In this document: in pieces, positions 22,433-44,289 of the stretch | Numbering within the stretch: position 1 is the first letter of the stretch | Layout: each line of letters starts with the position of its first letter | DNA from: Acidobacteriota bacterium | GTDB lineage: Bacteria > Acidobacteriota > Vicinamibacteria > Vicinamibacterales > UBA8438 | Direction of reading: 5' to 3' | NCBI GenBank assembly: GCA_009861545.1 | Contig: VXME01000110.1 | Location: 22,284-86,283 of the forward strand | Length of the DNA stretch: 64,000 nucleotides | Translations under genes and position numbers: made by a program | Notes under the pieces: generated by a model | Seen by the model: only the letters and a program-made list of their open reading frames with translations | Databases searched by the model: none | What the model was told of the DNA's origin: nothing

Positions 22433-22434
22433 GG

Positions 22435-28076: not shown

Positions 28077-28139
28077 AAGCTGTCGACGCTAGCAGAGATC
28101 GGCCCCAGGTGGCAAGGGGCGCGACCCGACGGCCGCGCC

Positions 28140-28169: not shown

Positions 28170-28175
28170 AGGCGG

Positions 28176-28460: not shown

Positions 28461-28597
28461 CCGCCCCGTCGCACTTCCCCGCGACACCCCGTATCGCACG
28501 ATCGTCGGTTGTCGGGCTCGGCGTCGGCACAGGCACGGACGCCGGTGCGCGCCCCGCCCATCCGGAAATCAACGCTCGCACCTGGAGGAACACTGCC

Positions 28598-29545
28598 ATG
28601 TCGATTCTTCGCAGAGAACAGCTCGCTTCCCGCTGGATGGCGGTCGCCGCGCTGCTGGCCCTTTGCAGCACGGGCCCGGCGACCGTCGCGCACGCTCAGG
28701 ATGCTGCCGACCAGCCCTTCATGGCGGGGGCGCCGCTCGACCTGTCGTCGAACGCCAAGACCTACGGCGGCTTCCGCTTCGCCGAGAGCATGGCCTACGA
28801 CGAAGCCCGCGACCTGTACGTCGCGGTCAACGCCGGGATCGCCCAGAACGTCATTCCGAACGACGGCTACATCTCGCTGATCAACCCCGACGGCAGCGCC
28901 CACACGCTGAAGTGGATCGGCGTCAACCGGAACGGCCTGACGTTGAACCACCCCCTCGGCAGCGACATCATCAACGGCCTGCTGTACGTGGCCGACATCA
29001 ACGTGGTGCGCTGGTTCGACATGGAGAGCGGCGAGCCGCGGGGCAGCGTCACCGTCGAGGACGCGCAGCGCTTCAACGACATCGAGGTCGCCGAGGACGG
29101 GACCATCTGGGCCTCGCAGACCGGGACCGAGGAGAGCGGCACCTGGCGCCTGTACCGCATCGGACCGGACGGCGACTCGTCGGTCGTCGTCGAGGGAGCC
29201 CCGCTGGCCCGGCCCAACGGCGTAGCCTTCGACCCGGACGGCAACGTCGTCGTGGTGAACATCAACGACAACGCGGTGCTCACGTTCTCGCCCGACGGCG
29301 AGCTCGTCAAGACCGAGCACGCCGTGGACGGCGGCAACGACGGACTGGTGATTCTGGACGACGGCACGAAGTACGTCTCCAGCGTCAGGATCGGCACCGT
29401 CTCGCGCATCCGTCCCGGAGAAGAGGCCGAGGTCGTGGCGTCCGGCATCCCGAGCGCCGCCTCGATGTCCTACGACTCGAAGCGGAACCGGCTGCTCATC
29501 CCGATGAACAACTGGAACGCCATCACCATCGTCGAACTCGACTGA
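28598..29545 (+). CDS. periplasmic six-bladed beta-propeller protein (SGL/NHL-like)
   Basis: Start at ATG 28598 inside track ORF 28298..29545. Signal peptide (WMAVAALLALCSTGPATVAHA). Blade-like repeats include LYVAVNAG, LYVADINVV, DGTIWASQ, PNGVAFDPDGNVVVVN and DGLVILDDG. Confidence 0.65.
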   Translation: MSILRREQLASRWMAVAALLALCSTGPATVAHAQDAADQPFMAGAPLDLSSNAKTYGGFRFAESMAYDEARDLYVAVNAGIAQNVIPNDGYISLINPDGSAHTLKWIGVNRNGLTLNHPLGSDIINGLLYVADINVVRWFDMESGEPRGSVTVEDAQRFNDIEVAEDGTIWASQTGTEESGTWRLYRIGPDGDSSVVVEGAPLARPNGVAFDPDGNVVVVNINDNAVLTFSPDGELVKTEHAVDGGNDGLVILDDGTKYVSSVRIGTVSRIRPGEEAEVVASGIPSAASMSYDSKRNRLLIPMNNWNAITIVELD

Positions 29546-29596
29546 TCGGGACCGCGAACGCCGGTCCCCAGACGCAACCATCGACCCGCCGGAACC

Positions 29597-29881
29597 ATGA
29601 AGAAGCCGAGCCGGCCGCTCGCGTTCGCAGCGCTGGTGCTGACGTGCGTCCTGCTGCCGGCCGGCTCTTTCTTCCACGAACACGACGAAGGAGACGCGAC
29701 CGGCGGCGACCACCACAACTGCGTCATCTGCTGTATTGCGCACTACGCCGCGATAGAGGCCCGCGCAGCGCCGACGGCGTCGACGCCCGAACTCACGGCG
29801 CTCGCTGCAGCGCGGACGCACTACCGAATCGGCCCGCGCACCGCGCTCGACATCCGACCCACGCGCGGACCGCCCGCGTAG
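29597..29881 (+). CDS. small exported Cys/His protein, paralog P4 (ends TRGPPA)
   Basis: 94 aa with a signal peptide (LAFAALVLTCVLLPAGS), then FHEHDEGDATGGDHHNCVICCIAH and a C-terminal IRPTRGPPA. It lies directly upstream of TBDR3. Confidence 0.65.
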   Translation: MKKPSRPLAFAALVLTCVLLPAGSFFHEHDEGDATGGDHHNCVICCIAHYAAIEARAAPTASTPELTALAAARTHYRIGPRTALDIRPTRGPPA

Positions 29882-30015
29882 CACCTCCCCCTTGCCGCGT
29901 CGACCCGGACGGTCCCCGAGGACCATCCGCGTGTCGGCCGTTCGAATGACGAAATCGGCGGGAGGCTCGCCGGCCGGCGTGGCTGACGAGTGACCGCCGC
30001 GGAGGTGGACTCGGG

Positions 30016-32466
30016 ATGCGTGTACGGAATCAGGTAGCTGCTTCGTTCGTTTCGGGCGCAATCGTCGTCGGCGGGCTGTTCGCCGCGGAGACGGCATTCG
30101 GACTCGAGGAAACCGGTTCGATCCAGGGAACCGTCGCGGCCGAGGACGGCGGGGTGCCGCTGCCGGCCGCGCGGGTAGCTCTGGAAGGCACCGACATGTC
30201 TGCCACAACGGGGGCCGACGGCGCATTCGCGATCGACGGCGTCCCTGCCGGAACGTATCGGCTGACGGTGACGCGCGAAGCCTTTGCGCCGCTCACGTCG
30301 CCGGTGACGGTGGCAGTCGGCGAACCCGTGCTTCTCGATCTCCGGCTCCCGGTGCTGGAGTTCGAGGAGAGCGTCGTGGTGACCGCGACGCAGACCGAGC
30401 GGGCGGTCACCGAGGTCGCGGCCAGCGTCACGATTCTCGACGCACGGACCATCGAAGCGTCGTCGGCCCGCAACCTGCAGGATCTGCTGCGCCGGACGCC
30501 GGCCATCGATCTCGCCGAGACCTCCGGCATGGCCGCCCGCGCCAACTCGTCGCTCGTCATGCGCGGCGTCCCCGGCACCAAGCGGGCCCTGCTCCTGGTG
30601 GACGGGCTGCCGGCCAACGATCTGGGTCTCGGCACGCTCGCCGCGCTGAGCCTCGTGCCGCTGGCCTCGGTGGAGCGCGCCGAGGTGGTCCGCGGACCGT
30701 TCTCGAGCCTCTACGGCGCCAACGCCTTCGCCGGCGCCATCAATGCCATCACCCGGCCCGGCGAGGGCCCGCCGGTGGCCGACTTCTTCGCCAGTGGCGG
30801 CGCGGCCGGCTACTACCAGCTCGGCACGTCCGTGCGCGGCGAAACCGGCCCCGTCGGCTACGCGTTCACCGCGGATCGCCGCAAGATCGACAACGTCTAC
30901 AACCGCGACACGCGCACCGTGCCGCGCGTCGCCGAAGACCGCAGCCTGCAGCAGGAGACCGTGCCCCTCCGCAACGTCGGGTACGAGGACGTGCGGCTGA
31001 CGGGCCGGCTGGACTTCTCCGTCTCGGACGCCTGGGACGTGACGCTGCTGCCGCGGATCTCCAGCTACGAGACGGGCCTCGACGTGTCGGCCCGCCTGCC
31101 GGTTGCGGTCGACGAGCACAAGCGCGACACGGCGGTGAACCTCGGCGGCATCTTCCGCTACAACGGGGCGGGTCCGCTGTCGGCGCAGATCCGAACCAGC
31201 TACCGCTACTCGAACCAGCGTCTCTTCCAGGAGAACTTCACGCTCGCCCCGACGCGGCAGACGACCATCGTCGATCCGCCCGGGCCGGCCGTCGTCGAGT
31301 CGGTGTCGCACGGCGTGTTTCCTTTCGCGGCCCTCACCGGCCAGGACACCGACTTCCGCAGCGTGCTCGTCGAGCCGCAGGTCACCTGGGCGCCGAACCT
31401 CGCTCACACGGTCGTCCTCGGGGCGAGCTACACGAGCGAGCGCGGCTCGTTCGGCGACAGCACCATCGCCGATCATTCCAACCTGCTCGGCTCGGACGCC
31501 ACGCTCGCGCGGGTTGCCGCGGGCATCCAGGCCGGCATGGCGGCGGGAGGCGTGCCCAATCCGACCGTCACCCTCGTCCGGGATCCCGCGATCGGCAACG
31601 TCTTCCCCCTGTCACGGGGCCAACGGGAGCAGTTCGACATCTTCTCCGCGTACGTGCAGGACGAGTGGGTGCTGGCCGACCGGCTGCGACTGGTCCCCGG
31701 CCTGCGCTACGACCAGCACTCGGAGTTCGGCTCGGTCGGTTCGCCGAAGGTGTCGCTGCTGTACGCCCTGACGCCGGCGACGCGAGTGCGCACCTCCGCC
31801 GGCCGCGCCTTCCGCGCCCCGAGCCTCTTCGAGCTGTTCGGCAACGTCGTCTTCCACGGTCCCATTCCCGGACTGCCGAATCCGGACCTGGAACCCGAGC
31901 ACATCACCTCGTTCGACGGCGGGATTCAGCACGAGGTCAGCCGCGCGCTCCGGGCGGAGATGAACGTCTTCCACAACGACATGACGGATCTCATCCAGCT
32001 CGTAGTCTCGCCGCAGCGCGACCACTTCGACTGGGTGAACGTCGCCGACGCGCGCTCGACCGGCCTGGAGCTGGTGGCGAACGGGCAGGCGGCCTCGTGG
32101 CTGGGCTACTACGCCAACTACGCGTACACGGACAGCGAGGACCGCGCCACCGGCAACCCGCTGGCGCTGGTGCCGCGGCAGAAGGTCAACGCGGGCATCC
32201 AGTTGGGGGCGGCGCTCGGGTCGTGGCGCCTGACCGGGTCCGTCGATCAGCGCTGGGTCGGCGAGCGGACGCAGAGCTCGCAGGGCGTCCCGGTGCTGCT
32301 CGACGAGTACATGCGCACCGACCTCGCGGTCTACCTGCATCCCAACGACGACCTGCGTGTGGGTGTTCACGTCCTGAACGTGATGGATGCCGACTACCAG
32401 GAAACGGCGGCGAGCCCGACGCTCGGACGTCTCGTTTCGGTGAGCCTGGCGATAACGCCTTTCTAG
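30016..32466 (+). CDS. TonB-dependent receptor with CarboxypepD_reg-like N-domain (TBDR3)
   Basis: GSIQGTVAAEDGGVPLPAARVAL...GTYRLTV is followed by plug motifs (VVVTATQTERAV..., LLRRTPAIDL, MRGVPGTKRALLLVDGLPAND, VERAEVVRGPFSSLYGANAFAGAIN) and a barrel ending ITPF. GGAGG lies 10 nt before the ATG. Confidence 0.9.
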   Translation: MRVRNQVAASFVSGAIVVGGLFAAETAFGLEETGSIQGTVAAEDGGVPLPAARVALEGTDMSATTGADGAFAIDGVPAGTYRLTVTREAFAPLTSPVTVAVGEPVLLDLRLPVLEFEESVVVTATQTERAVTEVAASVTILDARTIEASSARNLQDLLRRTPAIDLAETSGMAARANSSLVMRGVPGTKRALLLVDGLPANDLGLGTLAALSLVPLASVERAEVVRGPFSSLYGANAFAGAINAITRPGEGPPVADFFASGGAAGYYQLGTSVRGETGPVGYAFTADRRKIDNVYNRDTRTVPRVAEDRSLQQETVPLRNVGYEDVRLTGRLDFSVSDAWDVTLLPRISSYETGLDVSARLPVAVDEHKRDTAVNLGGIFRYNGAGPLSAQIRTSYRYSNQRLFQENFTLAPTRQTTIVDPPGPAVVESVSHGVFPFAALTGQDTDFRSVLVEPQVTWAPNLAHTVVLGASYTSERGSFGDSTIADHSNLLGSDATLARVAAGIQAGMAAGGVPNPTVTLVRDPAIGNVFPLSRGQREQFDIFSAYVQDEWVLADRLRLVPGLRYDQHSEFGSVGSPKVSLLYALTPATRVRTSAGRAFRAPSLFELFGNVVFHGPIPGLPNPDLEPEHITSFDGGIQHEVSRALRAEMNVFHNDMTDLIQLVVSPQRDHFDWVNVADARSTGLELVANGQAASWLGYYANYAYTDSEDRATGNPLALVPRQKVNAGIQLGAALGSWRLTGSVDQRWVGERTQSSQGVPVLLDEYMRTDLAVYLHPNDDLRVGVHVLNVMDADYQETAASPTLGRLVSVSLAITPF

Positions 32467-32479
32467 ACCGGAGGATCCG

Positions 32480-35400
32480 ATGACTGCCAGGACAGAACCG
32501 GCACGCGAGCGGACGGTGAGGACCCGGCTGGCCGACCTGTGGTCCCATCGCAAGCGGATCGCGGCGGCGGTGCTCGCGGCGGCGGTGCTCTGGGGCGGGT
32601 TCGCGGCCTACCAGCGCCATCTCGCGGTGACCCGAGTCGCCTTCGTCAACTTCCCCGGCTTCCAGCTCGCGCGCATCGAGCGCGCGCGACCGCACGGCGC
32701 GGTGCGCATCGAGCCGCTGGACATGGCGACGCTGGACCGGGCCGCCGACTATCCGGTCGTCTACATCTTCGGACGCGGCCTGCAGCTCGAAGAGGCGCAG
32801 CTCGAGCACCTGCGCGAAGCCGGCCGCCGGGGCGCGCGCCTGTTCGTGCAGGGGGCCACGAACCCGGCCCTCGACGTCACCAACCTGCGCGGCGCGCAGC
32901 TCGACGCCGTCAACGGCTACCTCGAGTTCGGGGGCGCCGACAACTACGCCCGGCTGCTCAACTTCTCGCGCGTCGAGCTCGACGGCAAGGCGTTCCGCTC
33001 GGATCCGGTGCAGCCCCCGGTCGAGCGTTCCATGGACGTGCTGTTCCATCTGGACGACGACCTGACGTTCGAGACCGTCGACGCGTTCGACGCCTACTAC
33101 GACGCGCAGGGTCTGGCGAAACCGAACGCCCCGAACATCGCCCTGATCACCAGCGTGCCCGGCCCGTTCAACGCCAACCGGGATCACGTCGATGCGTTCA
33201 TCCAAGCGCTTGAGGGCCGCGAGTGGAACGTCTACCCGATTGCCGCCGTCGAGAAGCGCCTCGACTTCCTCAAGGAGATCGAACCCGATCTCGTGGTGCT
33301 GATGCCGCACGGCCGGCTCACCCTGGGCCGCGCCGACGAGGCGATCGCGTGGCTGCGGGAGCGCGACATCCCCATGCTGACGCCGCTCTCGGTGTTCCAG
33401 AACCACGACGAGTGGGTGACCGACCAGCAGGGAATGGCCGGCGCCCTGCTCACGATGAGCGTCGTGCTACCCGAGCTCGACGGCGGCATCGCACCCTACG
33501 CGGTGGCGGCGCAGTTCACCGACGCGGACGGCTACGAGATCTTCGACGTGGTGCCGGGGCGGCTCGACACCTTCTGCGACCTCGTCGAGCGCTGGCTGGC
33601 GCTGAAGGCGAAGCCCAACCGCGACAAGCGCGTGGCCATCTACTACTACAAGGGACCGGGCAAGAACGCCATGCACGCCGGCAGCATGGAGGTGGCGCCG
33701 AGCCTGCTGAACCTGCTGCGCTCGCTGCGCGACGCCGGCTACACGGTCGAGGGGCTCCCCGAGACCGACGACGAGTTCTGGGAGCTCGTCCAGGCAAAGG
33801 GCCCGGTGCTCGGACCGTACGCGCGCGGCGCGTTCGAGGAGTACGTGGCCACCGGCGATCCGGCCCTGGTGCCGGCCGCCGAGTACGCCGCGTGGATGGC
33901 GGCGGACCTCGAGCCGGGCATGCGCGACGCCGTCGTCGAGCAGTACGGCCCCGCCCCGGGCGAGTACATGACGGTCGGCGAGGGCGACGAGACCGCGCTG
34001 GCGGTGGCCCGCGTGCAGTTCGGCAACGTCGTCATCCTGCCGCAGCCCCTGCCGGGCGTCGGCGACGACACGTTCCGGCTCGTGCACGGCGCGCGGAAGG
34101 CCCCGCCCCATCCCTACGTGGCCTCCTACCTGTGGACCCGCAATGCCTTCGGGGCCGACGCCGTGATGCATCTCGGCACGCACGGCAGCCTGGAGTTCAG
34201 GCCCTGGAAGCAGATTGCGCTGTCGACATTCGACTGGTCGGACGCCCTCGTCGGCGGGCTCCCGCACGTCTACGTCTACGTCATGAGCAACATAGGCGAG
34301 GGGATCATCGCCAAGCGCCGCTCCTACGCCACCACGGTGACCCACCTGACGTCCCCGTTCATGGAGGGCGGGCTGTACGAGGGGCTGCGGCCGCTGCGAA
34401 ACCGGCTCGACAGTTATCGCAACGCAGCCGACGGGCCGGTCCGGGCGGAGCATGCGCGCACGATCCGACGCCTTGCGACGGAGATGAACCTGCACGTCGA
34501 CCTCGGCCTCGACCCCGACGCGGCGTGGTCGGCGGACGACTTCTTCCGGCTGAGCAACCACGTCGAGACCATCGACGGGGAGAAGGTCGCGCAGGGCCTC
34601 TACACCCTCGGGAACGCCTTCACGGAGGCGGAGGTCGACTCGACGGCGGAGCTGATGGCGATCGATCCGATCGCCTACGCCCTGGCCCGCATCGACACGA
34701 TCAAGCGTGCGGTCGACGCCGCCGACCTGGAGGACGAGGTGCTCTTCGAGCGCCGCTACCGCCGGCGGGCCCGCGACGCCTATGCGCGGCGGGTGGCGGG
34801 CGGCGACGCCGATGCGGTGCTCTCCGACCTGGTGGCGGACGCCGACCGGCAACACGCCCACGCCTGGCGGGAAGCGGCGCGCCGGCCGTCGGACGACGAC
34901 ATCATCCGCGGGTTCATCTCGATGGGCGCGGGCAGCCGCAACCGGCCGGACGCGACCGTGTCCGCAGCCCGCGCGGGCGAACTCGAGGACCTGGTGGCGC
35001 GCATCCTGCCGCATCCGCGCAAGGTCGAATTCGTCGAGCGGATGCAATCGGAGCAGGAGTTCGCGCGGACGTCGCAACTGCTGGATCCCGTGCAGCGCGA
35101 GCGCGCGAAGACCATCGCCGCGGTCATCCCCCCGATGGCCGAGGCCATCGAGATCGCCGAGGACCCGGACGTTTTCGCCCTGCTGGAGGTGATGCAGGAC
35201 GCGGCGCTCCGCGAGCGGACCTTCGCCCTGCTGAAGGACCCGGGACTCGTCGACCGCGTTGAGGAGGAAAAGCGGCGGCTGGCGGCGGAGCGGCTCGCGT
35301 TCGCCCTCGATGCGCCTCAGGTCGAGGCGCTCGGGCGGGCCTGGGGCCACGAATCGGCCGGCGAGCTGGTGACCGCCGCCAGCGAGGACATCGAGAAGGC

Positions 35401-37270
35401 CCTGGAAGCAGCCACCTTCTACCGGGAGCACCGCGCGGCGCTCGGCGGCCAGCTTCGGGAGGTCGACGCGCCAGCGGCGGATCGCCTGCGAGAAATCCTC
35501 GACGACCCGTCGTTCGACCGGCGCCTCGACGGCGCCGTCGGCGCCGCGGAGATCGAGATGGAGAAGCGAGCGGCCCGGGACGCGGAGCTCGCACGCGCAG
35601 TCCTGACGCTGGAAGCGAGCGTCGCCGGCATCGACCGGCATCGGCAGGGCCTGCGCAACAGCACGGATCTGGAGCTCGGGAGCGTGGCACGCGCCCTCGG
35701 CGGCGGCTATGTGGAGCCTTCGCCCGGAGGTGACCCCATCGTCAACCCCGACGCCGTCCCCACCGGTCGCAACCTCTTCTCCATCGACGCCGAGAAGACC
35801 CCGTCGCCGGAGGCGTGGACGGTGGGGCGCGGTCTGGCGGAGGCGCTCCTCGAGGAGCACCGGCGGCGGCACGACGCGTATCCCCGGAAGGTCGCGTTCA
35901 CGCTCTGGCCCACCGACTTCATCGGCACCGAGGGCGCGACCATCGGCCAGATCTTCTACCTGCTGGGCGTCGAGCCGGTCTGGGACGCGTTCGGGAGGGT
36001 CGCCGACCTGCGCCTGATGCCGGCGGCCGACCTCGGCCGGCCCCGCATCGACGTCGTCGTCCAGACCGCCGGCCAGCTCCGGGACCTCGCCGCCTCGCGC
36101 CTCGCGCTCATCAACCGCGCCGTCGCGATGGCGGCCGAGGCTCGCGATGCGGACGGGCACGCCAACTTCGTCCAGGCGGGGCGCCTGCGGGCGGAAGAGG
36201 TGATGAAGGAGAAGGGCCTGTCGCCCGCGGACGCGCGCCGCTACTCGACGCTGCGGGTCTTCGGCGGCGTGAACGGCATCTACGGGACGGCCATCATGGA
36301 GATGGTCGAAAGTGGCGACCGCTGGGAGGACGATGCCGAGGTTGCCGGCCAGTACCTGCGCAACATGGGCGCCGTCTACGACGAAGGCGAGCTCTGGAGC
36401 TTCTACGCCGAGGGCATCTTCGAGGCGGCGCTCGCCGACACCGAGATCGTCGTGCAGCCGCGGGAGAGCCACACCTGGGGCGCCCTCAGCCTGGACCACG
36501 TCTACGAGTTCATGGGCGGGCTGAGCATGGCCGTCCGCCACGTGACCGGCCGGGACGCCGACGCCTACTTCAACGACTTCCGCAACGCGCAGCGGCCGCG
36601 GGTGACCGACCTCACCGAGACGGTCTGGACCGAGGCGCGGTCGACGCTGCTGAACCCGGCCTACATCGGCGAGATGCAGGAGGGCGGCGCCTCGTCGGCC
36701 GAGCACTTCGCCGAGACGTTCCGCAACACCTACGGGTGGAACGTGATGAAGCCGGCGGCCATCGACGACGCGCTCTGGAACGAGCTGTACGAGGTGTACG
36801 TCGACGACCGCTACGACATCGGGATCGAGGACTTCTTCCGCCGCGAGAACCCGTACGCACTGCAGGAGATGACGGCGGTGATGCTTGAGACCGTGCGCAA
36901 GGGCTACTGGGAAGCCTCGGCGCGGCAGGTCGAGGTGCTGGCGGAGTTGCACACCCGCCTGGTGGAGGAGTTCGAGGCGGGCTGCAGCGGGTTCGTCTGC
37001 GACAACGCGGCCCTGGCGACGTTCATCGCCGAGCAGGCCCCGGCAGACCTCGCGGCGAGCTATCGGAGCGAGCTGCAGCGGGCGCTGACGTCGAGCGTGG
37101 AGCTGACCGAGGCGAGCGTGGTCCTGGCGGACCAGGACGCCGAGGCGCGGCCGGCCGATGCGCCGGCGAACCAGCCGCCCGCGCGACGCCTGGCCTACCT
37201 GGGCGCAATCATAGTCGCCGGGCTGCTCGCGATCGCGCTGCTCGTCCTGCGGCGCCGGAGCACGACCTGA
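32480..37270 (+). CDS. CobN/Mg-chelatase-like large subunit homolog with N- and C-terminal membrane anchors
   Basis: 1596 aa. CobN-like blocks: YYYKGPGKNAMHAG, FGNVVILPQPLPG, HPYVASYLWTRNAFGADAVMHLGTHGSLEFRPWK, PHVYVYVMSNIGEGIIAKRRSYATTVTHL, GGGYVEPSPGGDPIVNPDAVPTGRNLFS, RKVAFTLWPTDFIGTEGATIGQIFYLLGVEP and RPRIDVVVQTAGQLRD. Hydrophobic helices lie at aa ~27-45 and ~1565-1588. GGAGGA RBS, 13 nt after the TBDR3 stop. Confidence 0.85.
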   Translation: MTARTEPARERTVRTRLADLWSHRKRIAAAVLAAAVLWGGFAAYQRHLAVTRVAFVNFPGFQLARIERARPHGAVRIEPLDMATLDRAADYPVVYIFGRGLQLEEAQLEHLREAGRRGARLFVQGATNPALDVTNLRGAQLDAVNGYLEFGGADNYARLLNFSRVELDGKAFRSDPVQPPVERSMDVLFHLDDDLTFETVDAFDAYYDAQGLAKPNAPNIALITSVPGPFNANRDHVDAFIQALEGREWNVYPIAAVEKRLDFLKEIEPDLVVLMPHGRLTLGRADEAIAWLRERDIPMLTPLSVFQNHDEWVTDQQGMAGALLTMSVVLPELDGGIAPYAVAAQFTDADGYEIFDVVPGRLDTFCDLVERWLALKAKPNRDKRVAIYYYKGPGKNAMHAGSMEVAPSLLNLLRSLRDAGYTVEGLPETDDEFWELVQAKGPVLGPYARGAFEEYVATGDPALVPAAEYAAWMAADLEPGMRDAVVEQYGPAPGEYMTVGEGDETALAVARVQFGNVVILPQPLPGVGDDTFRLVHGARKAPPHPYVASYLWTRNAFGADAVMHLGTHGSLEFRPWKQIALSTFDWSDALVGGLPHVYVYVMSNIGEGIIAKRRSYATTVTHLTSPFMEGGLYEGLRPLRNRLDSYRNAADGPVRAEHARTIRRLATEMNLHVDLGLDPDAAWSADDFFRLSNHVETIDGEKVAQGLYTLGNAFTEAEVDSTAELMAIDPIAYALARIDTIKRAVDAADLEDEVLFERRYRRRARDAYARRVAGGDADAVLSDLVADADRQHAHAWREAARRPSDDDIIRGFISMGAGSRNRPDATVSAARAGELEDLVARILPHPRKVEFVERMQSEQEFARTSQLLDPVQRERAKTIAAVIPPMAEAIEIAEDPDVFALLEVMQDAALRERTFALLKDPGLVDRVEEEKRRLAAERLAFALDAPQVEALGRAWGHESAGELVTAASEDIEKALEAATFYREHRAALGGQLREVDAPAADRLREILDDPSFDRRLDGAVGAAEIEMEKRAARDAELARAVLTLEASVAGIDRHRQGLRNSTDLELGSVARALGGGYVEPSPGGDPIVNPDAVPTGRNLFSIDAEKTPSPEAWTVGRGLAEALLEEHRRRHDAYPRKVAFTLWPTDFIGTEGATIGQIFYLLGVEPVWDAFGRVADLRLMPAADLGRPRIDVVVQTAGQLRDLAASRLALINRAVAMAAEARDADGHANFVQAGRLRAEEVMKEKGLSPADARRYSTLRVFGGVNGIYGTAIMEMVESGDRWEDDAEVAGQYLRNMGAVYDEGELWSFYAEGIFEAALADTEIVVQPRESHTWGALSLDHVYEFMGGLSMAVRHVTGRDADAYFNDFRNAQRPRVTDLTETVWTEARSTLLNPAYIGEMQEGGASSAEHFAETFRNTYGWNVMKPAAIDDALWNELYEVYVDDRYDIGIEDFFRRENPYALQEMTAVMLETVRKGYWEASARQVEVLAELHTRLVEEFEAGCSGFVCDNAALATFIAEQAPADLAASYRSELQRALTSSVELTEASVVLADQDAEARPADAPANQPPARRLAYLGAIIVAGLLAIALLVLRRRSTT

Positions 37271-37334
37271 CACGGGCGTAAGGGGGCCTTCGACGCAACC
37301 CGGGAACACGAGCAGTTCGAGACTGGAGACGACC

Positions 37335-39626
37335 ATGCGATGCACCCCTGCAGCCTCCGCCCTGTTGGCGGCGGTCATCCTGGCGAGCGGAGCAGGCGCG
37401 GGCGACGGCGTGAGGGCGCACGCGCAGTCCCCCTTGATGCCGGCCGCGCCACCCGAGACCGCGCCGCCTCTCCCGCACGCATCAGCGGACGTGTCCGGGG
37501 CCTACGCCGGCGACGTGCTCTACATGCATGCAGGAGAGCAACCGCCCGCCTCCCGCACTGCCGCGGGCGCCGGGAGGGCCGCTCTCTACGCGCTCTCCCC
37601 GGCCGACGCGTTCTGGAGGACGGTCTGGACCGGCAGCCCGGTACTCGGCTCGGTGCTCGTCAGCGACGGCGAGGACCTCTACCGCGTGGGAGGCGCCGAG
37701 ATCACGGGCGCCCGTCGGGCCCGCCCCGACCTGCAGCGGTGGGACCAGGCGGATGGGGAGTGGGTCGACCTGACGCCGATGCCGTCGGGCAGGACGGACC
37801 ACGCGGCGGTGATTGTCGGGCAGCGGCTCTGGGTGCTCGGCGGCTGGGCGCCCTCGGCGGTGGCCGAGAGCCCCCGAGCGCGCCTCCGCCCGCCCGCCGT
37901 GCCGGCCGAGGACTGGCGCGACGACGTGCTCGTCGCCGACCTCGACGCGGACCCGGTGACCTGGACGGTGGTCGAGACGGCATCCCTGCGCCTGCATTCC
38001 CTTGCCGCGGCCGTCCACGAGGACGCCGTCTGGCTCGCCGGGGGCATGACGCCCGGCGGGCCGGCGCTCGACGTGCAGCGGCTGGACCTGCGGACCCGGA
38101 CCCTGGCGCCCGCGCCCGTTCCGCCGATTCGCGGCCGCAGCCGGGGCGTCGGCCTGGGCATGGCCGCGACCGGCGGGAACCTGTACGTGAGCAACGTGAA
38201 CCAGTTGTTCCGTCTCGACGCCGGCGGACGCGCCTGGCAGGCGCTCACCTACGACATCGCGCCGGAACGTGCCTACCACGCCCTGGTCGGCGGACCCGGC
38301 GTGCTGCACATCGTGGGGGGAGCCGCGCACGGCCGCACCCACGCGGTGGTCGACCGGGTCGAGGCGGCCTCGCTGCGGCCGAGCGACGTGCTCGAAACGC
38401 CGCGGCGGACGGCGGGCGCGGCAGGCGACCGGCCGCCGCTGGCCGGAGCCCGGCGCTGGCCCGGCTTTCGGGGAGCGGCGTTCGGTCACAGCCAGGCCCG
38501 CGACCTTCCGCTGGCCTGGTCGGACGACGAGAACCTCGCGTGGCGGCACGCCATCGGCGGCTACGGCCAATCGAGCCCCGTGGTCTGGGACGGGCACGTG
38601 TTCGTCACCGCCATCGACGGCCCGCGGCGCGAGACGCAGATCGTCGAGGCCGTCGACGCGCGGACCGGCGAGCTGCGGTGGCGCCACACCCTGGCGTCGA
38701 GCCAGCCCGTCGAGGTCACGAACTTCGTGGCCAAGGGCGCGCCGACGCCGCGAGTCGACGCCGAACGTGTCTACTACCTGTTCGAGAGCGGCGACCTCGG
38801 CGCGCTGCGCCATGACGGCGAGCCGCTCTGGTCCCGGTCGCTGAAGGCGGACTACGGCGAGATCGAGGGCTACGGCCTCGGCGGCTCGCTCGCCGGCAAC
38901 GACGAGTCGCTGTTCGTCCTCGCCGCCCACGACGGTCCGTCGTACCTGCTGGCCGTCGATGCAGCCACCGGCGAGACGCGGTGGAAGGCGGATCGTCCCG
39001 CCGCGTCGGCCTGGACGACGCCGATCGTCGTGCCCTGGGAGGACGGCGAGCTCGTGGTGGTCAGCATCGACGGCACGGTCGAGGCGTACGACGCGGGGAC
39101 CGGCGAACGGGTCTGGTGGATCGACGGGCTCTCCGGCAACAGACTCCCGTCGCCGATCCTCGCCGGGGGGCGCATCGTCGTCTCGTCGTCGGACTCCCGG
39201 TCCAACCTCGTCCTGCCCGTCGGGCACCGGGGACGGCTCGCGGAGGAACAGGTCGTCTGGCGCGGCCGCAGCGCGACGGCTTCGATGTCGTCGCCGGTCG
39301 TGAACGGCGAGGCGATCTACTTCATCAACTCCCGGGGCGTCATCCGCTGCCTCGAGCTGGACTCGGGCCGGTCGCGGTGGGCGACCCGCCTCGCGTCGGC
39401 CGCGTGGGCGACGCCGATCGTCAACGGCGACCGCGTCTACGTGTTCGGGACCGACGGCGTGGCCTCGATCTTCGCCGCGGACGCGGCCGAGCCGCTCGAG
39501 CTGGCGAGGAACTCGCTGACCGTCTCCGAGCGCGTGTACGGCACGGCCGCCGTCGACGGCGGGCTGCTCGTCAGGACGGGGCGGGAACTGATCCGCATCG
39601 GGCGCGGCGGCGGCACCGGGCGCTGA
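37335..39626 (+). CDS. exported Kelch-like + PQQ/BamB-like double beta-propeller protein
   Basis: Signal peptide is present. The N-half has Kelch-like blades (LYRVGGAE, RLWVLGGWA, AVWLAGGMTPGG, LHIVGGAAHG). The C-half has PQQ-like repeats (WPGFRG...SSPVVWDGHVFV, DARTGELRWRH, DAATGETRWKA, DAGTGERVWW, LDSGRSRWAT). Confidence 0.7.
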   Translation: MRCTPAASALLAAVILASGAGAGDGVRAHAQSPLMPAAPPETAPPLPHASADVSGAYAGDVLYMHAGEQPPASRTAAGAGRAALYALSPADAFWRTVWTGSPVLGSVLVSDGEDLYRVGGAEITGARRARPDLQRWDQADGEWVDLTPMPSGRTDHAAVIVGQRLWVLGGWAPSAVAESPRARLRPPAVPAEDWRDDVLVADLDADPVTWTVVETASLRLHSLAAAVHEDAVWLAGGMTPGGPALDVQRLDLRTRTLAPAPVPPIRGRSRGVGLGMAATGGNLYVSNVNQLFRLDAGGRAWQALTYDIAPERAYHALVGGPGVLHIVGGAAHGRTHAVVDRVEAASLRPSDVLETPRRTAGAAGDRPPLAGARRWPGFRGAAFGHSQARDLPLAWSDDENLAWRHAIGGYGQSSPVVWDGHVFVTAIDGPRRETQIVEAVDARTGELRWRHTLASSQPVEVTNFVAKGAPTPRVDAERVYYLFESGDLGALRHDGEPLWSRSLKADYGEIEGYGLGGSLAGNDESLFVLAAHDGPSYLLAVDAATGETRWKADRPAASAWTTPIVVPWEDGELVVVSIDGTVEAYDAGTGERVWWIDGLSGNRLPSPILAGGRIVVSSSDSRSNLVLPVGHRGRLAEEQVVWRGRSATASMSSPVVNGEAIYFINSRGVIRCLELDSGRSRWATRLASAAWATPIVNGDRVYVFGTDGVASIFAADAAEPLELARNSLTVSERVYGTAAVDGGLLVRTGRELIRIGRGGGTGR

Positions 39627-39739
39627 AGACGGGGCCTCGGGCGGTCGCCGCGCAGGCAGGTATCCTGATGCAGCAATCGTCGTCTGGGCCCAGCGCGAAG
39701 TTCCTGCGACGGCGGAGAACGACCTGACACCCGCGAACC

Positions 39740-40465
39740 ATGGAGGCGGTACTCGACATCGTCGCGGGAACGGGTGTCGTCCTGTTCCTGCTGGCGCTGG
39801 CGTACATCGAGCGTGCCTGGGGCCGGTTGCTGGCCGTCGCGATGGTCGCGGCAATCGCCTACGCCGTGCACCCGATCGCGGTGCGCCAGAGCCTGCCCGC
39901 CTTCGTCGGCGCCCTGGACGGTGTCGACCTCCAGACGCTGGCCGCCGTCCTCACGCTCGACGGTGTCCTGGGCTGCACCGGGGCGACCCTGCTGCTGGGA
40001 GCCCGTGGCGCGGCCTCCGCGAAGAATCTCCACGGACTCTCGGAAACTCGGCACGGCCTGCCCTTGCATCGCCTCCGGCGACTCGCGGCACACCATGTCG
40101 GCGTCATCCCCGCGCCGGCGCTGTTCTACCTGGAGATGAAGGCGTTCGACGCGTCACCATGGCCCTTCTCGACGACCGCCCTGGCGCTGTGCGGCGCCGT
40201 CGTCGTTGCCGGTCTCGCGGGGAGCGAGGCGATTCGACGGCTGCTTCCGGATCGGGATCTACGGGCCGAGCTGCGCCTGCTCGTGCACGCCGCGCAGGTG
40301 ATGCTGGCGGCCGGGCTGACCGCGTTCGCCTTGCAGGGCGGTGTGAACCGCTCGGCGGCGGCGCTCGAAGCGGGGCCCCATGCCGTCGTCGCCGCCGCGG
40401 CGGCGCTCGGGATCGGCATCGGTTACTGGAGCCATCGCCGGCGCCTGCGCCGCGGCGCAGAGTGA
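39740..40465 (+). CDS. polytopic integral membrane protein (possibly DUF2162/HmuT-like)
   Basis: 241 aa with about 6 hydrophobic helices and an Arg-rich C-terminus. Position and size fit the membrane protein that precedes MotA/ExbB-like genes in CobN-like clusters. The family call is unverified. Confidence 0.55.
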   Translation: MEAVLDIVAGTGVVLFLLALAYIERAWGRLLAVAMVAAIAYAVHPIAVRQSLPAFVGALDGVDLQTLAAVLTLDGVLGCTGATLLLGARGAASAKNLHGLSETRHGLPLHRLRRLAAHHVGVIPAPALFYLEMKAFDASPWPFSTTALALCGAVVVAGLAGSEAIRRLLPDRDLRAELRLLVHAAQVMLAAGLTAFALQGGVNRSAAALEAGPHAVVAAAAALGIGIGYWSHRRRLRRGAE

Positions 40466-40544
40466 GACCGTGGAACCGCCGACACGTCCGTTCTCCTCCG
40501 GGAAGTCCCGCTCGGCGCCGGGCCGCATCGCAGAGTGAAGCCCC

Positions 40545-41153
40545 ATGGAGCTGTTGACCCGCACCCTGTATCTGCTCTCGACCGGCCTGCTGGTCCCGGT
40601 CATCGTCCTGCTGCTGATCCTCTTCGCCCGATCGCTGCTGCTCGCCGGACGCACCTACGGCGCCTGGCTGTCGCGGCTTCGGTTCCGATCCGCGTTGCGC
40701 CCGCTGCTCGACCGGCTCGATCGCGACAACGCGGAGTCCCTGCTCCGCGACGCCGACCTGCCCCCCGAGCCGCGGTGGAAGCCGGCGATCTGGCGTCTGC
40801 TCGACCACGGCCGGTCGGCGGCGCAGCGCGAGAAGGCGCTCGCCGACTTCGAGGCGGGCTGCGAGGAGGACCTCGCGCCGGCGCGGACCATGGCCCGCCT
40901 GGGCCCGATGCTCGGCCTGATGGGAACGCTCATCCCGATGGGACCGGCGCTGGTGGGACTGGCCGCCGGCGACATCGCGACGATGGCCGAGAACCTGCAG
41001 GTGGCCTTCTCGACCACGGTCGTGGGCCTCTTCGTCGGCGGCATCGGCTTCGCCGTCTCGCAAGCGAAGCAACGCTGGCACGGCGAGGCGCTCAACGACC
41101 TGGAGTTCGTGAGCGGGCTCATCGGCGAACGGACATCCACACAAGAAGAGTAG
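40545..41153 (+). CDS. MotA/TolQ/ExbB proton-channel family protein
   Basis: An N-terminal TM and a cytoplasmic loop are followed by the conserved C-terminal TM pair (LGPMLGLMGTLIPMGPAL...LQVAFSTTVVGLFVGGIGFAV), typical of the ExbB/TolQ core. Confidence 0.85.
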   Translation: MELLTRTLYLLSTGLLVPVIVLLLILFARSLLLAGRTYGAWLSRLRFRSALRPLLDRLDRDNAESLLRDADLPPEPRWKPAIWRLLDHGRSAAQREKALADFEAGCEEDLAPARTMARLGPMLGLMGTLIPMGPALVGLAAGDIATMAENLQVAFSTTVVGLFVGGIGFAVSQAKQRWHGEALNDLEFVSGLIGERTSTQEE

Positions 41154-41221
41154 TCGTCTCGCCCCCGGGGGGCCTCGCCCCATCGGCGAACAGACGTCCA
41201 CACAAGAAGCAGGAGGCCCGG

Positions 41222-41569
41222 ATGGCAGGCAGGAGACGGCGGCGGCGGCTCGGCGCCGCGTTTCGTGACGACACCGACCCGCTCGGCGCCATCGCGAACC
41301 TGTTCGACGTCGCCATGGTCTTCGCCGTGGCGCTCATGGTCGCCATGGTCAGCCGCTGGCAGTTGACGGAGTTCCTCACGCAGGAGGACTTCACGATGGT
41401 CAAGAACCCCGGCACCGCAGAGATGGAGATCATCACCCAGGAGGCCGGCGAGATCACCCGCTATCGGGCCGAGGACGTGAACGACGCCGCGGGCCGCCGC
41501 GGCCGGCGGGTCGGCATCGCCTACCAACTCGACAGCGGCGAGATCATCTACGTGCCGGAAGCGCCCTGA
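41222..41569 (+). CDS. single-pass membrane protein, DUF2149-like (ExbD-position partner)
   Basis: C-terminal part of track ORF 40535..41569, with AGGAGG 6 nt before ATG 41222. An Arg-rich N-terminus is followed by GAIANLFDVAMVFAVALMVAMV (the NLFDVAMVF motif I associate with DUF2149) and a ~70-aa soluble tail. Confidence 0.65.
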   Translation: MAGRRRRRRLGAAFRDDTDPLGAIANLFDVAMVFAVALMVAMVSRWQLTEFLTQEDFTMVKNPGTAEMEIITQEAGEITRYRAEDVNDAAGRRGRRVGIAYQLDSGEIIYVPEAP

Positions 41570-41578: not shown

Positions 41579-42598
41579 CTACCGGACAGGGCGGTAGTTC
41601 TCCTCGAGGCCAGGTGCATACACCGGCGGACTGCCATACGGCTCGCCCCGGAGGAACTCGATGGAACGCCCTTGCGTGAGGCCGTCGAGTTGCTCCGACG
41701 CGTCCTGGAACGCCACGAAGTCCGGTCCGTTGCCGCCCATGCCGACCGCGCCGTCACGGACCGCGAGAAAGTGCTCGTAGCTGGCGTAGCGGGCCAGGTA
41801 GTACACCTCGTCGTAGTCGTCGCTCTCGACCGGGTCGCTGTTCGGCAGGTACGCGACCCGCCACAGGCCCACTGGCCGAACCCCGATCTTCTCCACGTAG
41901 GGCCAGACCCGATCGCGGGCGATGGCGTGATACTCCTCGAAGGCGCCCTTCCCGATCCGCGAGTGCTCCAGCGCGAGCAGGCCGTCTCCGGGCCGAGCCC
42001 GGCCCAACCGCACCGGGTAGGGTGCGGAAGAGGCCGGATCGGGGCTGCCGTCTATCTGCTCGTAGCGTTCGACGAGCCCGGGCATGTAGAGCGGGCGGAT
42101 CTCCGCCAGGTAGCCCTGCAGAAAGATGCCGCCGCGGGATCCCTGCTGGTACTGGCGGCGGGTGCGTAGCGCCTCCCGCGACGCATCGCTGAAGCCGCCG
42201 TCGCCGCCGAGCCGCCCGGCGCCTCCCGTATCGCCGGCGAGGGCGCCGCCGCGGGTGGCCTGCCAGTGCTCGTAGCTGGCGTATCGCGCGAAACGAAGCG
42301 CCTCGTCCCGGCCGGGCGTGGCGTCGTCGCCCGCGGGATAGACGACCTCGAAGTCGCCGAGTATCCGAGCGCCCAGCCTCTCGAACCAGGGCCACACCCC
42401 CGACCGGCTGGCTTCATGCCAGGCCTCGTAGCGGCCTTCCTCGAGATAGGCATGGCGCATCATGATGACTTCCTGCTGCCCCACTCTGGGCACGTCGTTG
42501 CGGACCGGGGTGGGCGCCTGGGCCCCCGGCGCCGGACCGAGCGCGAGCGCTGCCAGTCCGACCGCCATGACGGCGGTTCGTGCTCTACGGTTCTTCAT
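41579..42598 (-). CDS. exported tandem dimeric alpha/beta-barrel (NIPSNAP/ABM-like) protein
   Basis: Start at ATG 42598 (MKNRRARTAVMAVGLAALALGPAPGAQA). There is an internal duplication: ALRFARYASYEHWQATRGG in half 1 and VYYLARYASYEHFLAVRDG in half 2. The family call is tentative. Confidence 0.55.
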   Translation of the reverse strand: MKNRRARTAVMAVGLAALALGPAPGAQAPTPVRNDVPRVGQQEVIMMRHAYLEEGRYEAWHEASRSGVWPWFERLGARILGDFEVVYPAGDDATPGRDEALRFARYASYEHWQATRGGALAGDTGGAGRLGGDGGFSDASREALRTRRQYQQGSRGGIFLQGYLAEIRPLYMPGLVERYEQIDGSPDPASSAPYPVRLGRARPGDGLLALEHSRIGKGAFEEYHAIARDRVWPYVEKIGVRPVGLWRVAYLPNSDPVESDDYDEVYYLARYASYEHFLAVRDGAVGMGGNGPDFVAFQDASEQLDGLTQGRSIEFLRGEPYGSPPVYAPGLEENYRPVR

Positions 42599-42663
42599 GA
42601 CTGCGACTCCTGGTGCGACGTTGCGATTCCGAGATCTGCCCTGACTGTCCCCGCACATTCGGC

Positions 42664-43677
42664 TCACACGTCGTTGGCCCTCGCTTCTAGATCGGCGCAG
42701 CCGTCGATGAGCACGTCAAACGGTTCGGCATCATCGAGCATGCCGCCGGAGACCATCCGCTCGTAATCTTGCCGCAGCGCGTCCCGAGCGGGTCCCTCGG
42801 GAACCAGTTGCATCCCGCCGGAAACGGCAGCGCTGTAGTCGATCCATCGGCCGCCGGAATCCTTCTCACGGAAGAACGCCGCCTTGTGGCGCGCCACCGA
42901 CAGGGCGAGCGAGCGGTCGGCGAGCGCCTTGCCCGCATATCCGGTCTCGTCCAGACGAACGACGTCATGCCAATGACGAGACAGCCGATCGCCCCGCTGA
43001 CGCTGCTGGCGACAGAACACGTGCATCGCGGTCGCCTTTTCCCAGAAGGTACGTTCGGCCATCATGACCGACGGCGAGGCCGTCGGAAAGACGATGTCGG
43101 GAAGATGACGCGCCGCATCGCACGCGACGGGGCACGTCTCGTGGGGTTCGCCGGTTCCACGCGCCCCGAACTCGACGACAACTTCGGGCCGAACGAATCC
43201 GTAGGCGTCGAGCACCGGTTCGTAACGAAGGACGAGCCGTTCGCCAGAGGCGCTGACTTCGCCGGAGAGGCCCGGCCGGCCGAGGCCCTCGCCGACCGCC
43301 GCTAGCGCCTCGCCCCGGACCCACTCGGTGAGGCGTGAGCGGATCGCCCTGCTCCAGCGTTGCTCCTGACTTCGCGTGGACGGCAACGCCTCGGTGCCGG
43401 CGCCGGTCACGAGATCGGGCGCGAAGGCGCGGATGTCGTATGTGACATCGATGTCCTCCGAGAACCGGCGGATGGCGTGGTAGGCCTTGGCGAGCGACGT
43501 GCCGCCCTTGAACACGAGGTCGGTACCGAACGGCGCGCCGAAAAGGACACGCAGCATCCGGACGATCCAGACGTCCTTCTCCAGGAGGAACGCTCGCCGC
43601 CCGCCCGCTTGCTGAGCGACGTTCAGCGCCTCGCGCCTGTCTCGAACCGACAACGACTCGAACGGGGTCTCAGCCAT
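42664..43677 (-). CDS. AbiEii/AbiGii family nucleotidyltransferase toxin (type IV TA)
   Basis: LLEKDVWIVRMLRVLF...LVFKGGTSLAKAY..IRRFSEDIDVTYD is the characteristic DUF1814/AbiEii N-terminal NTase core. The gene overlaps the upstream antitoxin gene by 8 nt. Confidence 0.85.
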   Translation of the reverse strand: MAETPFESLSVRDRREALNVAQQAGGRRAFLLEKDVWIVRMLRVLFGAPFGTDLVFKGGTSLAKAYHAIRRFSEDIDVTYDIRAFAPDLVTGAGTEALPSTRSQEQRWSRAIRSRLTEWVRGEALAAVGEGLGRPGLSGEVSASGERLVLRYEPVLDAYGFVRPEVVVEFGARGTGEPHETCPVACDAARHLPDIVFPTASPSVMMAERTFWEKATAMHVFCRQQRQRGDRLSRHWHDVVRLDETGYAGKALADRSLALSVARHKAAFFREKDSGGRWIDYSAAVSGGMQLVPEGPARDALRQDYERMVSGGMLDDAEPFDVLIDGCADLEARANDV

Positions 43678-44266: not shown

Positions 44267-44289
44267 GATGATGGGCGGCTGAGCCGATG

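Follow-up and report, generated by a model that had tools for sequence, protein, structure and literature searches.

The window analysed here, a stretch of 64,000 nucleotides from an Acidobacteriota genome of the order Vicinamibacterales (contig VXME01000110.1, positions 22,284 to 86,283), carries on its forward strand a run of genes from 28176 to 41569 that encode two leader-type small proteins, two exported beta-propellers, a TonB-dependent receptor (TBDR), a very large chelatase-like protein and three membrane proteins. The locus is an hmu-type import-and-dechelation system in Acidobacteriota, of a kind that is already known, and its value is comparative. With good though not full confidence we regard it as one operon, an environmental variant of hmuRSTUV in Vicinamibacterales, which together with the mechanism set out below is the best explanation we can offer. 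The features are as follows, the seven genes from P4 to HmuV having been called by GC content at third codon positions (GC3) and from lists of open reading frames (ORFs).

28140-28168, + strand: promoter-like element TTGACT-18 nt-TTCAAT, from an alignment of seven orthologous divergent intergenic regions
28176-28460, + strand: P3, CruR/CutF-like leader ORF, 94 aa
28598-29545, + strand: exported NHL/SGL-type beta-propeller (Pfam), 315 aa
29597-29881, + strand: P4, 94 aa
29882-30015, + strand: P4-TBDR3 intergenic region, 134 nt
30016-32466, + strand: TBDR3, in the HmuR position, 816 aa
32480-37270, + strand: HmuS-type dechelatase (CobN-like), 1596 aa
37335-39626, + strand: Kelch and PQQ/BamB-like double propeller, 763 aa
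39740-40465, + strand: HmuT homologue, polytopic inner-membrane protein, 241 aa
40545-41153, + strand: HmuU, MotA/TolQ/ExbB family, 202 aa
41222-41569, + strand: HmuV, DUF2149 single-pass protein, 115 aa

The seven genes from P4 to HmuV are co-directional and separated by 134, 13, 64, 113, 79 and 68 nt, in agreement with the gaps of 13-134 nt given in the initial annotation of this DNA, which also correctly placed P3 and a further propeller gene upstream on the same strand. A generic promoter and terminator scan found no terminator-like site between these seven genes on the forward strand. Co-transcription is read from the spacing of the genes, which are probably one operon. The same scan missed the TTGACT-18-TTCAAT element, which is invariant in all seven aligned regions and probably represents the operon promoter; because it ends only 7 nt before the P3 start, transcription would begin at P3, probably giving a leaderless P3 mRNA. 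Another invariant block, TTTCGACGCTAGCAGAGAT, directly adjoins the start of the divergent leader P2, and neither inspection by eye nor the alignment revealed a Fur- or Zur-type AT-rich palindrome in the divergent region 28076-28175. The five core genes for receptor, HmuS, HmuT, HmuU and HmuV are co-directional and adjacent, with one propeller gene between S and T, and the resulting order R-S-(x)-T-U-V matches that of hmuRSTUV (PMC11681262), as had been noticed at the outset. A Pfam scan of the 34 GC3-called genes of the window, small and uncalled ORFs being excluded, returned no AAA+ or vWA protein of the ChlI/ChlD/CobS/CobT type, no TonB and no ExbD, as expected from the initial annotation, and likewise no cob gene; no HmuY-family match was found among the window genes scanned by Pfam. 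Within the cluster, the profiles CobN-Mg_chel, MotA_ExbB, DUF2149 and TonB_dep_Rec were all matched, as had been foreseen.

The 1596-aa protein matches Pfam CobN-Mg_chel (E = 2e-292) and, among PDB sequences, aligns to HmuS of Bacteroides thetaiotaomicron (9d26) with 1234 bits, compared to 370 for ChlH and 333 for CobN. This alignment spans query residues 31-774 and 1017-1594, i.e., the whole length save one internal insert. HmuS has recently been described as a haem dechelatase that is bound to the membrane and independent of ATP (Nath et al. 2025, PMC12583661), in which the second His of the HxGTHG motif is essential. The corresponding motif of the window protein, H564-L-G-T-H568-G, aligns with HFG(T/A)HG including His-538, and both histidines are invariant in 79 family sequences, among which only the window protein has Leu in place of Phe. 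At residues 1336-1347 it carries LSLDHVYEFMGG, including H1340 and E1343, which corresponds to LSLDHxxEFMGG with His-1209 and Glu-1212; in the family alignment, H564, H568, D1339, H1340, E1343 and LSLDHVYEFMGG are kept in all of the approximately 79 sequences. To judge by these matches the protein is a full-length HmuS homologue with an intact catalytic site, which substantiates the earlier description of a CobN-like protein of HmuS type. Since every named homologue is publicly annotated as 'cobaltochelatase subunit CobN' and the Pfam family is shared, a biosynthetic cobaltochelatase for cobalamin synthesis had to be considered as well. The protein scores below every NCBIfam equivalog cut-off for CobN and BchH, however, the solved CobN lies 3.7-fold below HmuS in score, the topology is periplasmic, the HmuS-specific motif LSLDHVYEFMGG is present, and the window holds neither CobS/CobT nor cob genes. 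An Rfam scan of the whole window gave no family at threshold, cobalamin riboswitch included, and therefore no B12 riboswitch accompanies the gene. We thus rejected the CobN (B12) annotation on account of the HmuS-specific motif, the periplasmic topology and the missing CobS/CobT, and regard such a function as very improbable.

A hydrophobic helix at residues 27-45 or thereabouts is preceded by nine Arg/Lys residues, and a C-terminal helix (1568-1595) is followed by RRRSTT. Because Arg/Lys flank both terminal helices, both ends of the protein lie in the cytoplasm and its body of about 1520 aa in the periplasm. This two-anchor topology is consistent with the periplasmic side also proposed for HmuS and BtuS, and it bears out the earlier notion of a membrane-anchored, non-cytoplasmic CobN-like protein.

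The three genes at the end of the cluster are assignable by homology to the remaining hmu core. The 241-aa membrane protein has at least five hydrophobic segments and no match in Pfam or NCBIfam even at E <= 1; it is therefore not DUF2162, one of the profiles named in the initial annotation, and we rejected that label. Iterated hidden Markov models (HMMs) identified an HmuT counterpart directly before U-V in 38 of the 42 loci with enough flanking sequence, and we assign the protein as the HmuT counterpart on this basis. Its sequence is very poorly conserved: a homologue search gave matches in Vicinamibacteria only, and the AlphaFold2 model is unusable (predicted local distance difference test, pLDDT, 51.7). 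The next protein, with three hydrophobic segments, matches Pfam MotA_ExbB (PF01618) with 42.7 bits (cut-off 22.9, E = 5.9e-11), and its motifs GPxLGLMGTLIPMGPAL and AFxTTVxG, at least 95% conserved across 54 sequences, correspond to the TM2/TM3 core of TolQ/ExbB. The last protein matches Pfam DUF2149 with 105 bits and is predicted to possess a single N-in helix with an Arg-rich N-terminus; Asp29 (in NLFD) sits near the cytoplasmic end of this helix and is at least 95% conserved in 54 sequences. A buried protonatable Asp in a single helix is the hallmark of ExbD, TolR and MotB. In addition, NLFD, KNPG and MEI are strongly conserved across phyla. By these features we identify the MotA-like protein as HmuU and its DUF2149 neighbour as HmuV.

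Scanning species-representative genomes, we obtained at least 583 related stretches. For synteny, six-frame ORFs of 77 loci were searched with the window proteins and then with iterated HMMs, and counts were taken over 42 loci from more than ten phyla that had at least 3.5 kb on both sides. Among the matches listed, the closest relatives (87-93% identity) are all metagenome-assembled genomes (MAGs) of Vicinamibacterales, while relatives at 37-53% identity come from Bacteroidota, Alpha-, Beta- and Gammaproteobacteria, Chlorobium, Omnitrophota, Latescibacterota, Gemmatimonadaceae, Desulfobacterales, Kuenenia, Isosphaeraceae and Victivallales/Lentisphaerae. This neighbourhood survey of CobN-like relatives, which the initial annotation had called for, showed the synteny to be kept: U and V are clustered with S in all 42 loci, and T joins them in 38, the order being S-T-U-V or T-U-V-S; in the two loci where U or V lies more than 3.5 kb off, a propeller gene is inserted, as in the window. 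A TBDR gene is found within 10 kb in 32 of the 42 loci and is missing from this range in the other ten, which include four Lentisphaerae/Victivallales loci and Kuenenia; the flanks of three receptor-less loci (L048, L034 and L032) were Pfam-scanned. None of the examined clusters contains TonB. Since U and V accompany S throughout while the receptor is missing in ten loci, the proton-channel module tracks the enzyme rather than the receptor, and the pair is inherited with the HmuS enzyme. Together with the HmuS homology and the core order, the position of the window in Vicinamibacterales confirms that an Hmu-like module exists outside Bacteroidota.

Two variant layouts were observed in this sample. 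In L048 (6615-14797), L034 (6630-14761) and L032 (7198-14896), which represent Lentisphaerae, Victivallales and Kuenenia, a prepilin-type N_methyl/DUF1559 protein precedes T-U-V-S and no receptor is present; in L048 and L034 a Fur-family regulator comes first. In nine Vicinamibacterales MAG loci (L004, L008, L011, L040, L041, L042, L046, L051 and L056) the module is duplicated in tandem, in the order [leader-TBDR-HmuS long form-propeller]-[leader-TBDR-HmuS short form]-T-U-V, the short form of HmuS having about 1310-1400 aa and an insert of 21 aa, whereas the window layout is single-copy, with the long form of HmuS. The duplicated loci hold one T-U-V set for two HmuS copies, U and V thus being single-copy where S and R are duplicated.

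In Pfam, the receptor TBDR3 matches CarboxypepD_reg at its N-terminus, followed by Plug and the TonB_dep_Rec barrel. It contains the box of haem receptors (FRAP/NPNL with a His in between), with FRAP at 599, H614 and NPDL at 622; TBDR2 of the same window has no FRAP. In NCBIfam it scores 200 bits with TonB-hemin (TIGR01785, cut-off 317) and 191 bits with TonB-B12, which is also below cut-off, and these nearly equal scores leave the receptor ambiguous.

Both propellers are taken to be exported, lineage-specific periplasmic accessories. The upstream one (Pfam SGL E = 2.4e-12, NHL E = 8e-5), with a ribosome-binding site GGAGGA before its ATG, is syntenic in Vicinamibacterales loci at E values of about 1e-185 to 1e-196. 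The double propeller consists of Kelch and PQQ_2/BamB-like repeats, its only PDB matches being BamB and designed propellers, and it occurs in L001, L006, L009 and the tandem-duplicated loci but is missing in the close relatives L005, L007 and L014; its range covers Vicinamibacterales and one other acidobacterial locus. The extra Kelch-PQQ gene reported between S and T in the initial annotation is real, and lineage-specific.

The window contains five paralogous leader ORFs, which precede the genes for TBDR1, TBDR2, an ATP-binding cassette (ABC) ATPase, the NHL propeller and TBDR3, and which share an export signal, a His/Asp-rich stretch, a CxxC motif, a spacer of 42-44 aa and a terminal R(A/G)PPA-stop. 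P3 has an export signal, HEHD...CDAC with the CxxC at residues 42-45, a 44-residue spacer and RGPP at 90-93, with only Ala before the stop codon; P4 has a signal peptide, HEHD..DHHNCVICC with the CxxC at 42-45, and RGPP at 90-93 within RGPPA-stop, its spacer being 44 aa as compared to 45 in Bp2923/CruR. RGPP is found in P3 and P4, RAPP in P1, P2 and the fifth leader. A pattern search of the window and related loci yielded 63 ORFs of this type, with a distance of 42-45 between CxxC and R(A/G/S)PP in all of them. The gaps downstream of the leaders measure 87-137 nt, with 137 nt between P3 and the NHL gene, upstream of which P3 is kept in Vicinamibacterales loci; hmu-like loci of Chitinophaga, Olivibacter and a Chitinophagaceae genome likewise have such a leader in front of the receptor gene. 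In Bordetella pertussis CruR (Bp2923), CXXC and RAPP are 45 residues apart and RAPP lies three residues from the C-terminus, and its gene is the first of a receptor operon, followed by a long intergenic gap, and encodes a copper-responsive arrest peptide (PMC9426467). With the same features, CutF opens a stem-loop that hides the ribosome-binding site of the next gene (10.1101/2022.11.11.516240). Given these CruR/CutF-type features, P4 is a regulatory leader and not a substitute for a hemophore, and it is probably a metal-sensing arrest peptide for TBDR3 and the genes behind it. The earlier idea of a DUF2946-like protein in the HmuY position did not hold, P4 being one of five paralogous CruR/CutF-type leaders; we rejected an HmuY analogue given the CxxC, the fixed spacer, the R(A/G)PPA-stop and the occurrence of paralogues before various genes.

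The P4-TBDR3 intergenic region might give a hint to how such a leader would act. The sequence CACCUCC (29885-29891), located 3 nt past the P4 stop codon, is complementary to the Shine-Dalgarno (SD) sequence GGAGGUG of TBDR3 (30000-30006), and in 13 orthologous regions 90% of the cells of the alignment are paired, compared to 47-65% with a slid partner. RNAalifold favours a neighbouring alternative helix, which likewise masks the SD, and the whole intergenic fold is not significantly better than shuffles (z = -1.46). In the proposed model P3 and P4 would set expression once transcription has started, a ribosome arrested at R-G-P-P-A-stop keeping the ribosome-binding site of the receptor free by covering either 5' arm, that of the anti-SD or that of the alternative helix, and metal bound to the nascent CxxC would modulate the arrest. 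Less favourable to this model are the single compensatory change found for the anti-SD/SD pairing (L014, CAUCUCC/GGAGAUG) with a weak shuffle control (84/500), and the DUF2946 (PF11162) scores, which with 20.9 bits for P4, 16.5 for P1 and 10.7 for the fifth leader stay below the cut-off of 23.7, P2 and P3 having no DUF2946 match in Pfam.

Compared with hmuYRSTUV of Bacteroidota (Porphyromonas gingivalis PG1551-1556; B. thetaiotaomicron), the window shares the core order receptor-HmuS-HmuT-HmuU-HmuV, a full-length HmuS with its catalytic residues, LSLDHxxEFMGG and two terminal anchors, and the lack of an ATPase partner. It differs in that it adds two exported propeller genes and CruR-type leaders, resides in a GC-rich soil acidobacterium, has a folded helical insert of 242 aa where Bacteroides has a disordered Met-rich insertion, and encodes an HmuS with Arg in place of Met-79, three pocket changes and 42-45% identity. 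The set PA1922-PA1925 of Pseudomonas aeruginosa follows the same four-gene logic and is induced by metal starvation, but there control is exerted by Zur at a Zur box and not by a leader peptide, and HmuT has not been reported. With CruR of B. pertussis and CutF of Rhodobacter capsulatus, the leaders share the export signal, the CxxC, the spacer of about 45 aa, R-A/G-P-P near the stop codon, the first-gene position in a receptor operon and the long gap, and the downstream SD can be sequestered as in CutF; they differ in having RGPPA rather than RAPP in P3 and P4 and in remaining below the Pfam threshold. CruR/CutF have been described mostly in Proteobacteria, and the hmu-type operon is missing from the published synteny list. 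CobNST and ChlHID share the superfamily fold and the conserved His of HxGTHG, yet they are cytoplasmic, depend on ATP and AAA+ partners and insert metal, whereas the window protein is periplasmic and anchored, lacks an AAA+ partner and, by homology, works in the reverse direction. As to ExbB-ExbD, TolQ-TolR and MotA-MotB, HmuU shares the TM2/TM3 motifs and HmuV is a single-pass protein whose helix has a buried Asp close to the cytoplasm; unlike these stator units, the periplasmic domain of HmuV is DUF2149 and not ExbD, TolR or OmpA-like, no gene for a TonB/TolA-like partner is present, and the pair is linked to an enzyme and to HmuT.

Taken together, these features suggest the following mechanism. 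The TBDR would import a metallotetrapyrrole, and HmuS, which both terminal helices anchor at the outer face of the inner membrane, would remove the metal at His564/His568-His1340/Glu1343 without ATP or an AAA+ partner. HmuU and HmuV would form a proton-driven, stator-like unit that, together with HmuT, functionally belongs to HmuS and powers not the receptor but the cycling of the enzyme (the loading of substrate or the release of product). This last step is the weakest. It has been reported that isolated HmuS needs no ATP and performs only 1-2 turnovers, and that membranes with NADH convert most haem (PMC12583661).

How the proton-channel pair is used can be read in three ways. Synteny favours a coupling of T-U-V to HmuS, to which we give a tentative preference, somewhat short of an even chance, and a stator in place of the AAA+ motor, as suggested in the initial annotation, is compatible with our data, if unproven, and is the most interesting possibility. 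That U and V work with the enzyme rather than with the receptor is supported only indirectly, by the synteny, by the invariant Asp in the membrane helix of HmuV and by the published turnover behaviour of HmuS in isolation and in membranes. According to the model of PMC12583661, HmuU and HmuV are instead paralogues of ExbB and ExbD that energise the adjacent receptor via a distant TonB, leaving HmuS unassisted; the cartoon described in the Figure 1 legend of that paper assigns U and V to the receptor and leaves T unclear, and a 2025 review states that the roles of the S-T-U-V partners are unclear, while calling the system characteristic of Bacteroidota. This assignment fits the Pfam MotA_ExbB match of HmuU, the ExbD/TolR-like helix of HmuV with its Asp and the adjacency of a receptor in 32 of 42 loci, and the window itself holds three receptors with no other ExbB, ExbD or TonB among the 34 scanned genes. 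It accounts poorly for the ten loci in which S-T-U-V stays together without a receptor within 10 kb, for the lack of TonB in any examined cluster and for single-copy U and V beside duplicated S and R, and we consider it rather unlikely. HmuV has neither an ExbD match in Pfam nor a sequence relative in PDB, which tells against an ExbD paralogue. The lack of a PDB relative of HmuV, together with the weak PDB match of HmuU to TolQ (E = 0.016), also tells against the stator-like unit that we favour. A further proposal, found in reviews, is transport: HmuT-U-V would be an inner-membrane transporter that uses the proton gradient to bring the substrate, its porphyrin product or the metal set free into the cytoplasm, in line with HmuT being polytopic and adjoining U-V in an operon without another inner-membrane importer. 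Proteins of the MotA/ExbB family are known as force generators and not as solute carriers, however, the very poor conservation of HmuT would be unusual for a substrate pathway, and in Bacteroides the released iron enters via FeoB, making this the least probable of the three.

By default, haem is our candidate substrate, given an identical catalytic site and the haem-type motifs of the receptor. Several observations nevertheless weigh against equating the window locus with the haem systems of Bacteroidota. With 42-45% identity to HmuS of Bacteroidales (loci L072 and L074-L076), the window protein lies below the criterion of Nath et al. 2025 for bona fide HmuS, namely at least 50% identity to the B. 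theta protein and a complete six-gene hmu operon (PMC12583661), and the window has no HmuY hemophore. R99 takes the place of Met-79, which in the B. theta enzyme is the axial ligand of the haem that is not the substrate; the equivalent of His-254 is present as H277. In the substrate cleft, where Ser-1014, Ser-1067 and Gln-1198 contact the propionates (PMC12583661), P1144, A1197 and E1329 replace these predicted contacts. The internal insert holds only four Met and is no Met-rich, low-complexity domain IV insertion, and BtuB and not a haem receptor is the best solved relative of TBDR3 (108 bits). Thus, the window HmuS is HmuS-like by every catalytic criterion but lacks three features of the bona fide family, and the substrate may not be haem, given R99, the pocket changes, the missing Met-rich insertion and HmuY, the identity below 50% and the BtuB-like receptor.

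The replacement of Met-79 is not a peculiarity of the window, since this position is Arg in 42, Met in 23 and His in 7 of the 79 family sequences. Arg (R-type) is found in all Acidobacteriota of the clade, in the proteobacterial members and in Cytophagales, Chitinophagales and Sphingobacteriales, and Met in Bacteroidales, the Planctomycetota-Verrucomicrobiota-Chlamydiota (PVC) group, Gemmatimonadaceae, Omnitrophota and Latescibacterota. The pocket positions and the insert are distributed as follows.

Ser-1014 (B. theta): Pro in 36/42 R-type sequences; Ser or Gly in M-/H-type sequences
Ser-1067 (B. theta): Ala in 36/42 R-type sequences; Ser in 30/30 M-/H-type sequences
Gln-1198 (B. theta): Glu in 26/42 R-type sequences; Gln or Ser in M-/H-type sequences
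34802-35527, + strand: HmuS insert of 242 aa (aa 775-1016), at the site of the Met-rich insertion of Bacteroides

AlphaFold2 predicts residues 740-1060 with a pLDDT of 88.1, the insert being folded and all-alpha, and a Foldseek search of this model against PDB gave no neighbour (best E = 0.63). To judge by the alignment, R-type HmuS is a separate branch with an altered pocket. Since a large subfamily thus lacks the ligand of the non-substrate haem and has a changed pocket, 'haem dechelatase' may be one of several specificities. R-type loci are spread over Acidobacteriota, Proteobacteria and non-gut Bacteroidota and frequently have CxxC arrest-peptide leaders or Zur-like boxes in front.

These observations raise the question of whether the metal harvested is Cu, Zn, Co or Ni rather than iron, with an imported metallotetrapyrrole or corrinoid as its source; the R-type enzyme would then have lost the haem site of the redox relay because its substrate requires no reduction. 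The co-variation of R99 with P1144, A1197 and E1329 in 42 sequences, as opposed to Met/His with Ser/Ser/Gln in 30, would be in line with this, as would BtuB as best solved match of the receptor. So would the leaders, since CruR-type CxxC leaders have been characterised as copper sensors of copper-related receptor operons and one of them heads this operon; but every window receptor carries a leader, and the acidobacterial leaders may sense another metal. Also in favour are the divergent neighbour in the window, which resembles the Zur-regulated znuK-znuGHI, a Zur-box-like palindrome, GTTATATCATAAC, that a Cellvibrionales MAG (L054, 1554-1566) has 16 nt ahead of its receptor gene, and PA1922-25 of P. 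aeruginosa, the same gene set (TBDR, CobN-like, ExbB-like, DUF2149), which belongs to the Zur regulon. A search with a Pseudomonadales homologue did not bring up PA1923 among the 120 matches listed, however, so that the family link is one of annotation only, and the promoter region of the window showed no Zur or Fur box. A further Zur-box-like palindrome, GTTATACTATAAC, is located about 500 nt upstream of the receptor in an Emcibacteraceae MAG (L026, 7031-7043), and boxes of this type came up in some proteobacterial relatives only. The pointers to the metal disagree, since in Bacteroidota it is iron or haem to which the hmu operon responds, and PVC loci carry a Fur-family regulator. For CobN-like proteins of archaea, a response to the supply of Ni or Fe/S has been reported. 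With the catalytic residues of the haem enzyme retained, the FRAP-His-NPDL box in the receptor and the haemin subfamily as its best NCBIfam match, we consider a metal other than iron unlikely, albeit worth keeping in view, and haem remains the default. Improbable as a whole is the combined reading that R-type HmuS forms a distinct, so far unrecognised periplasmic dechelatase branch which takes a non-iron metal from environmental metallotetrapyrroles and whose cycle is driven mechanically by a dedicated proton-motive HmuT-U-V stator, in place of the AAA+ motor of the biosynthetic chelatases; if true, it would be the first case of an enzyme that runs on a motor of the MotA/ExbB type.

The literature treats Hmu as specific to Bacteroidota and gives HmuT, U and V no function; the S-T-U-V core has a much wider distribution than is stated there. 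That the core is kept without a receptor gene points the proton-channel pair to the enzyme, in a way that can be tested genetically, and coupling to a motor, if true, would be a new way to energise periplasmic catalysis and would explain why isolated HmuS stalls after 1-2 turnovers. Moreover, an hmu operon of a soil lineage is here wired to arrest-peptide leaders that are so far known as copper sensors.

Back-to-back with the hmu operon lies a gene set on the reverse strand (21002-28088), consisting of a CruR-like leader (27771-28088), TBDR2 (25164-27644), a second CruR-like leader (24749-25048), an ABC ATPase (23863-24627) and two ABC-2/DUF3526 permeases. The znuK-znuGHI cluster of Caulobacter, which is regulated by Zur, consists of the same gene set; in the window this set lies behind arrest-peptide leaders. 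Further upstream, 15240-20913 on the forward strand may be another uptake unit for a metal or metallophore, with the CruR-like leader P1 (15240-15554), TBDR1 (15642-18092) and a 904-aa fusion protein (18199-20913) of a major facilitator superfamily-like membrane domain and a spermidine/spermine-synthase domain. Convergent to the operon, a 362-aa protein (41579-42667, reverse strand) has an N-terminal hydrophobic stretch, no Pfam match and the internal repeat 'ARYASYEH(W/F)' twice, and an AbiEii nucleotidyltransferase toxin with its AbiEi/DUF6088 antitoxin (42664-44584, reverse strand) is also encoded directly downstream. A DUF1552 (HXXSHH) gene is present in two copies, one at 45025-46410 on the forward strand and one within 50909-55032 on the reverse strand, the latter being paired with a 912-aa DUF1585/1587/1588/1592/1595 and cytochrome-c-like protein in the manner of the Planctomycete-type PSD/PSCyt pair.

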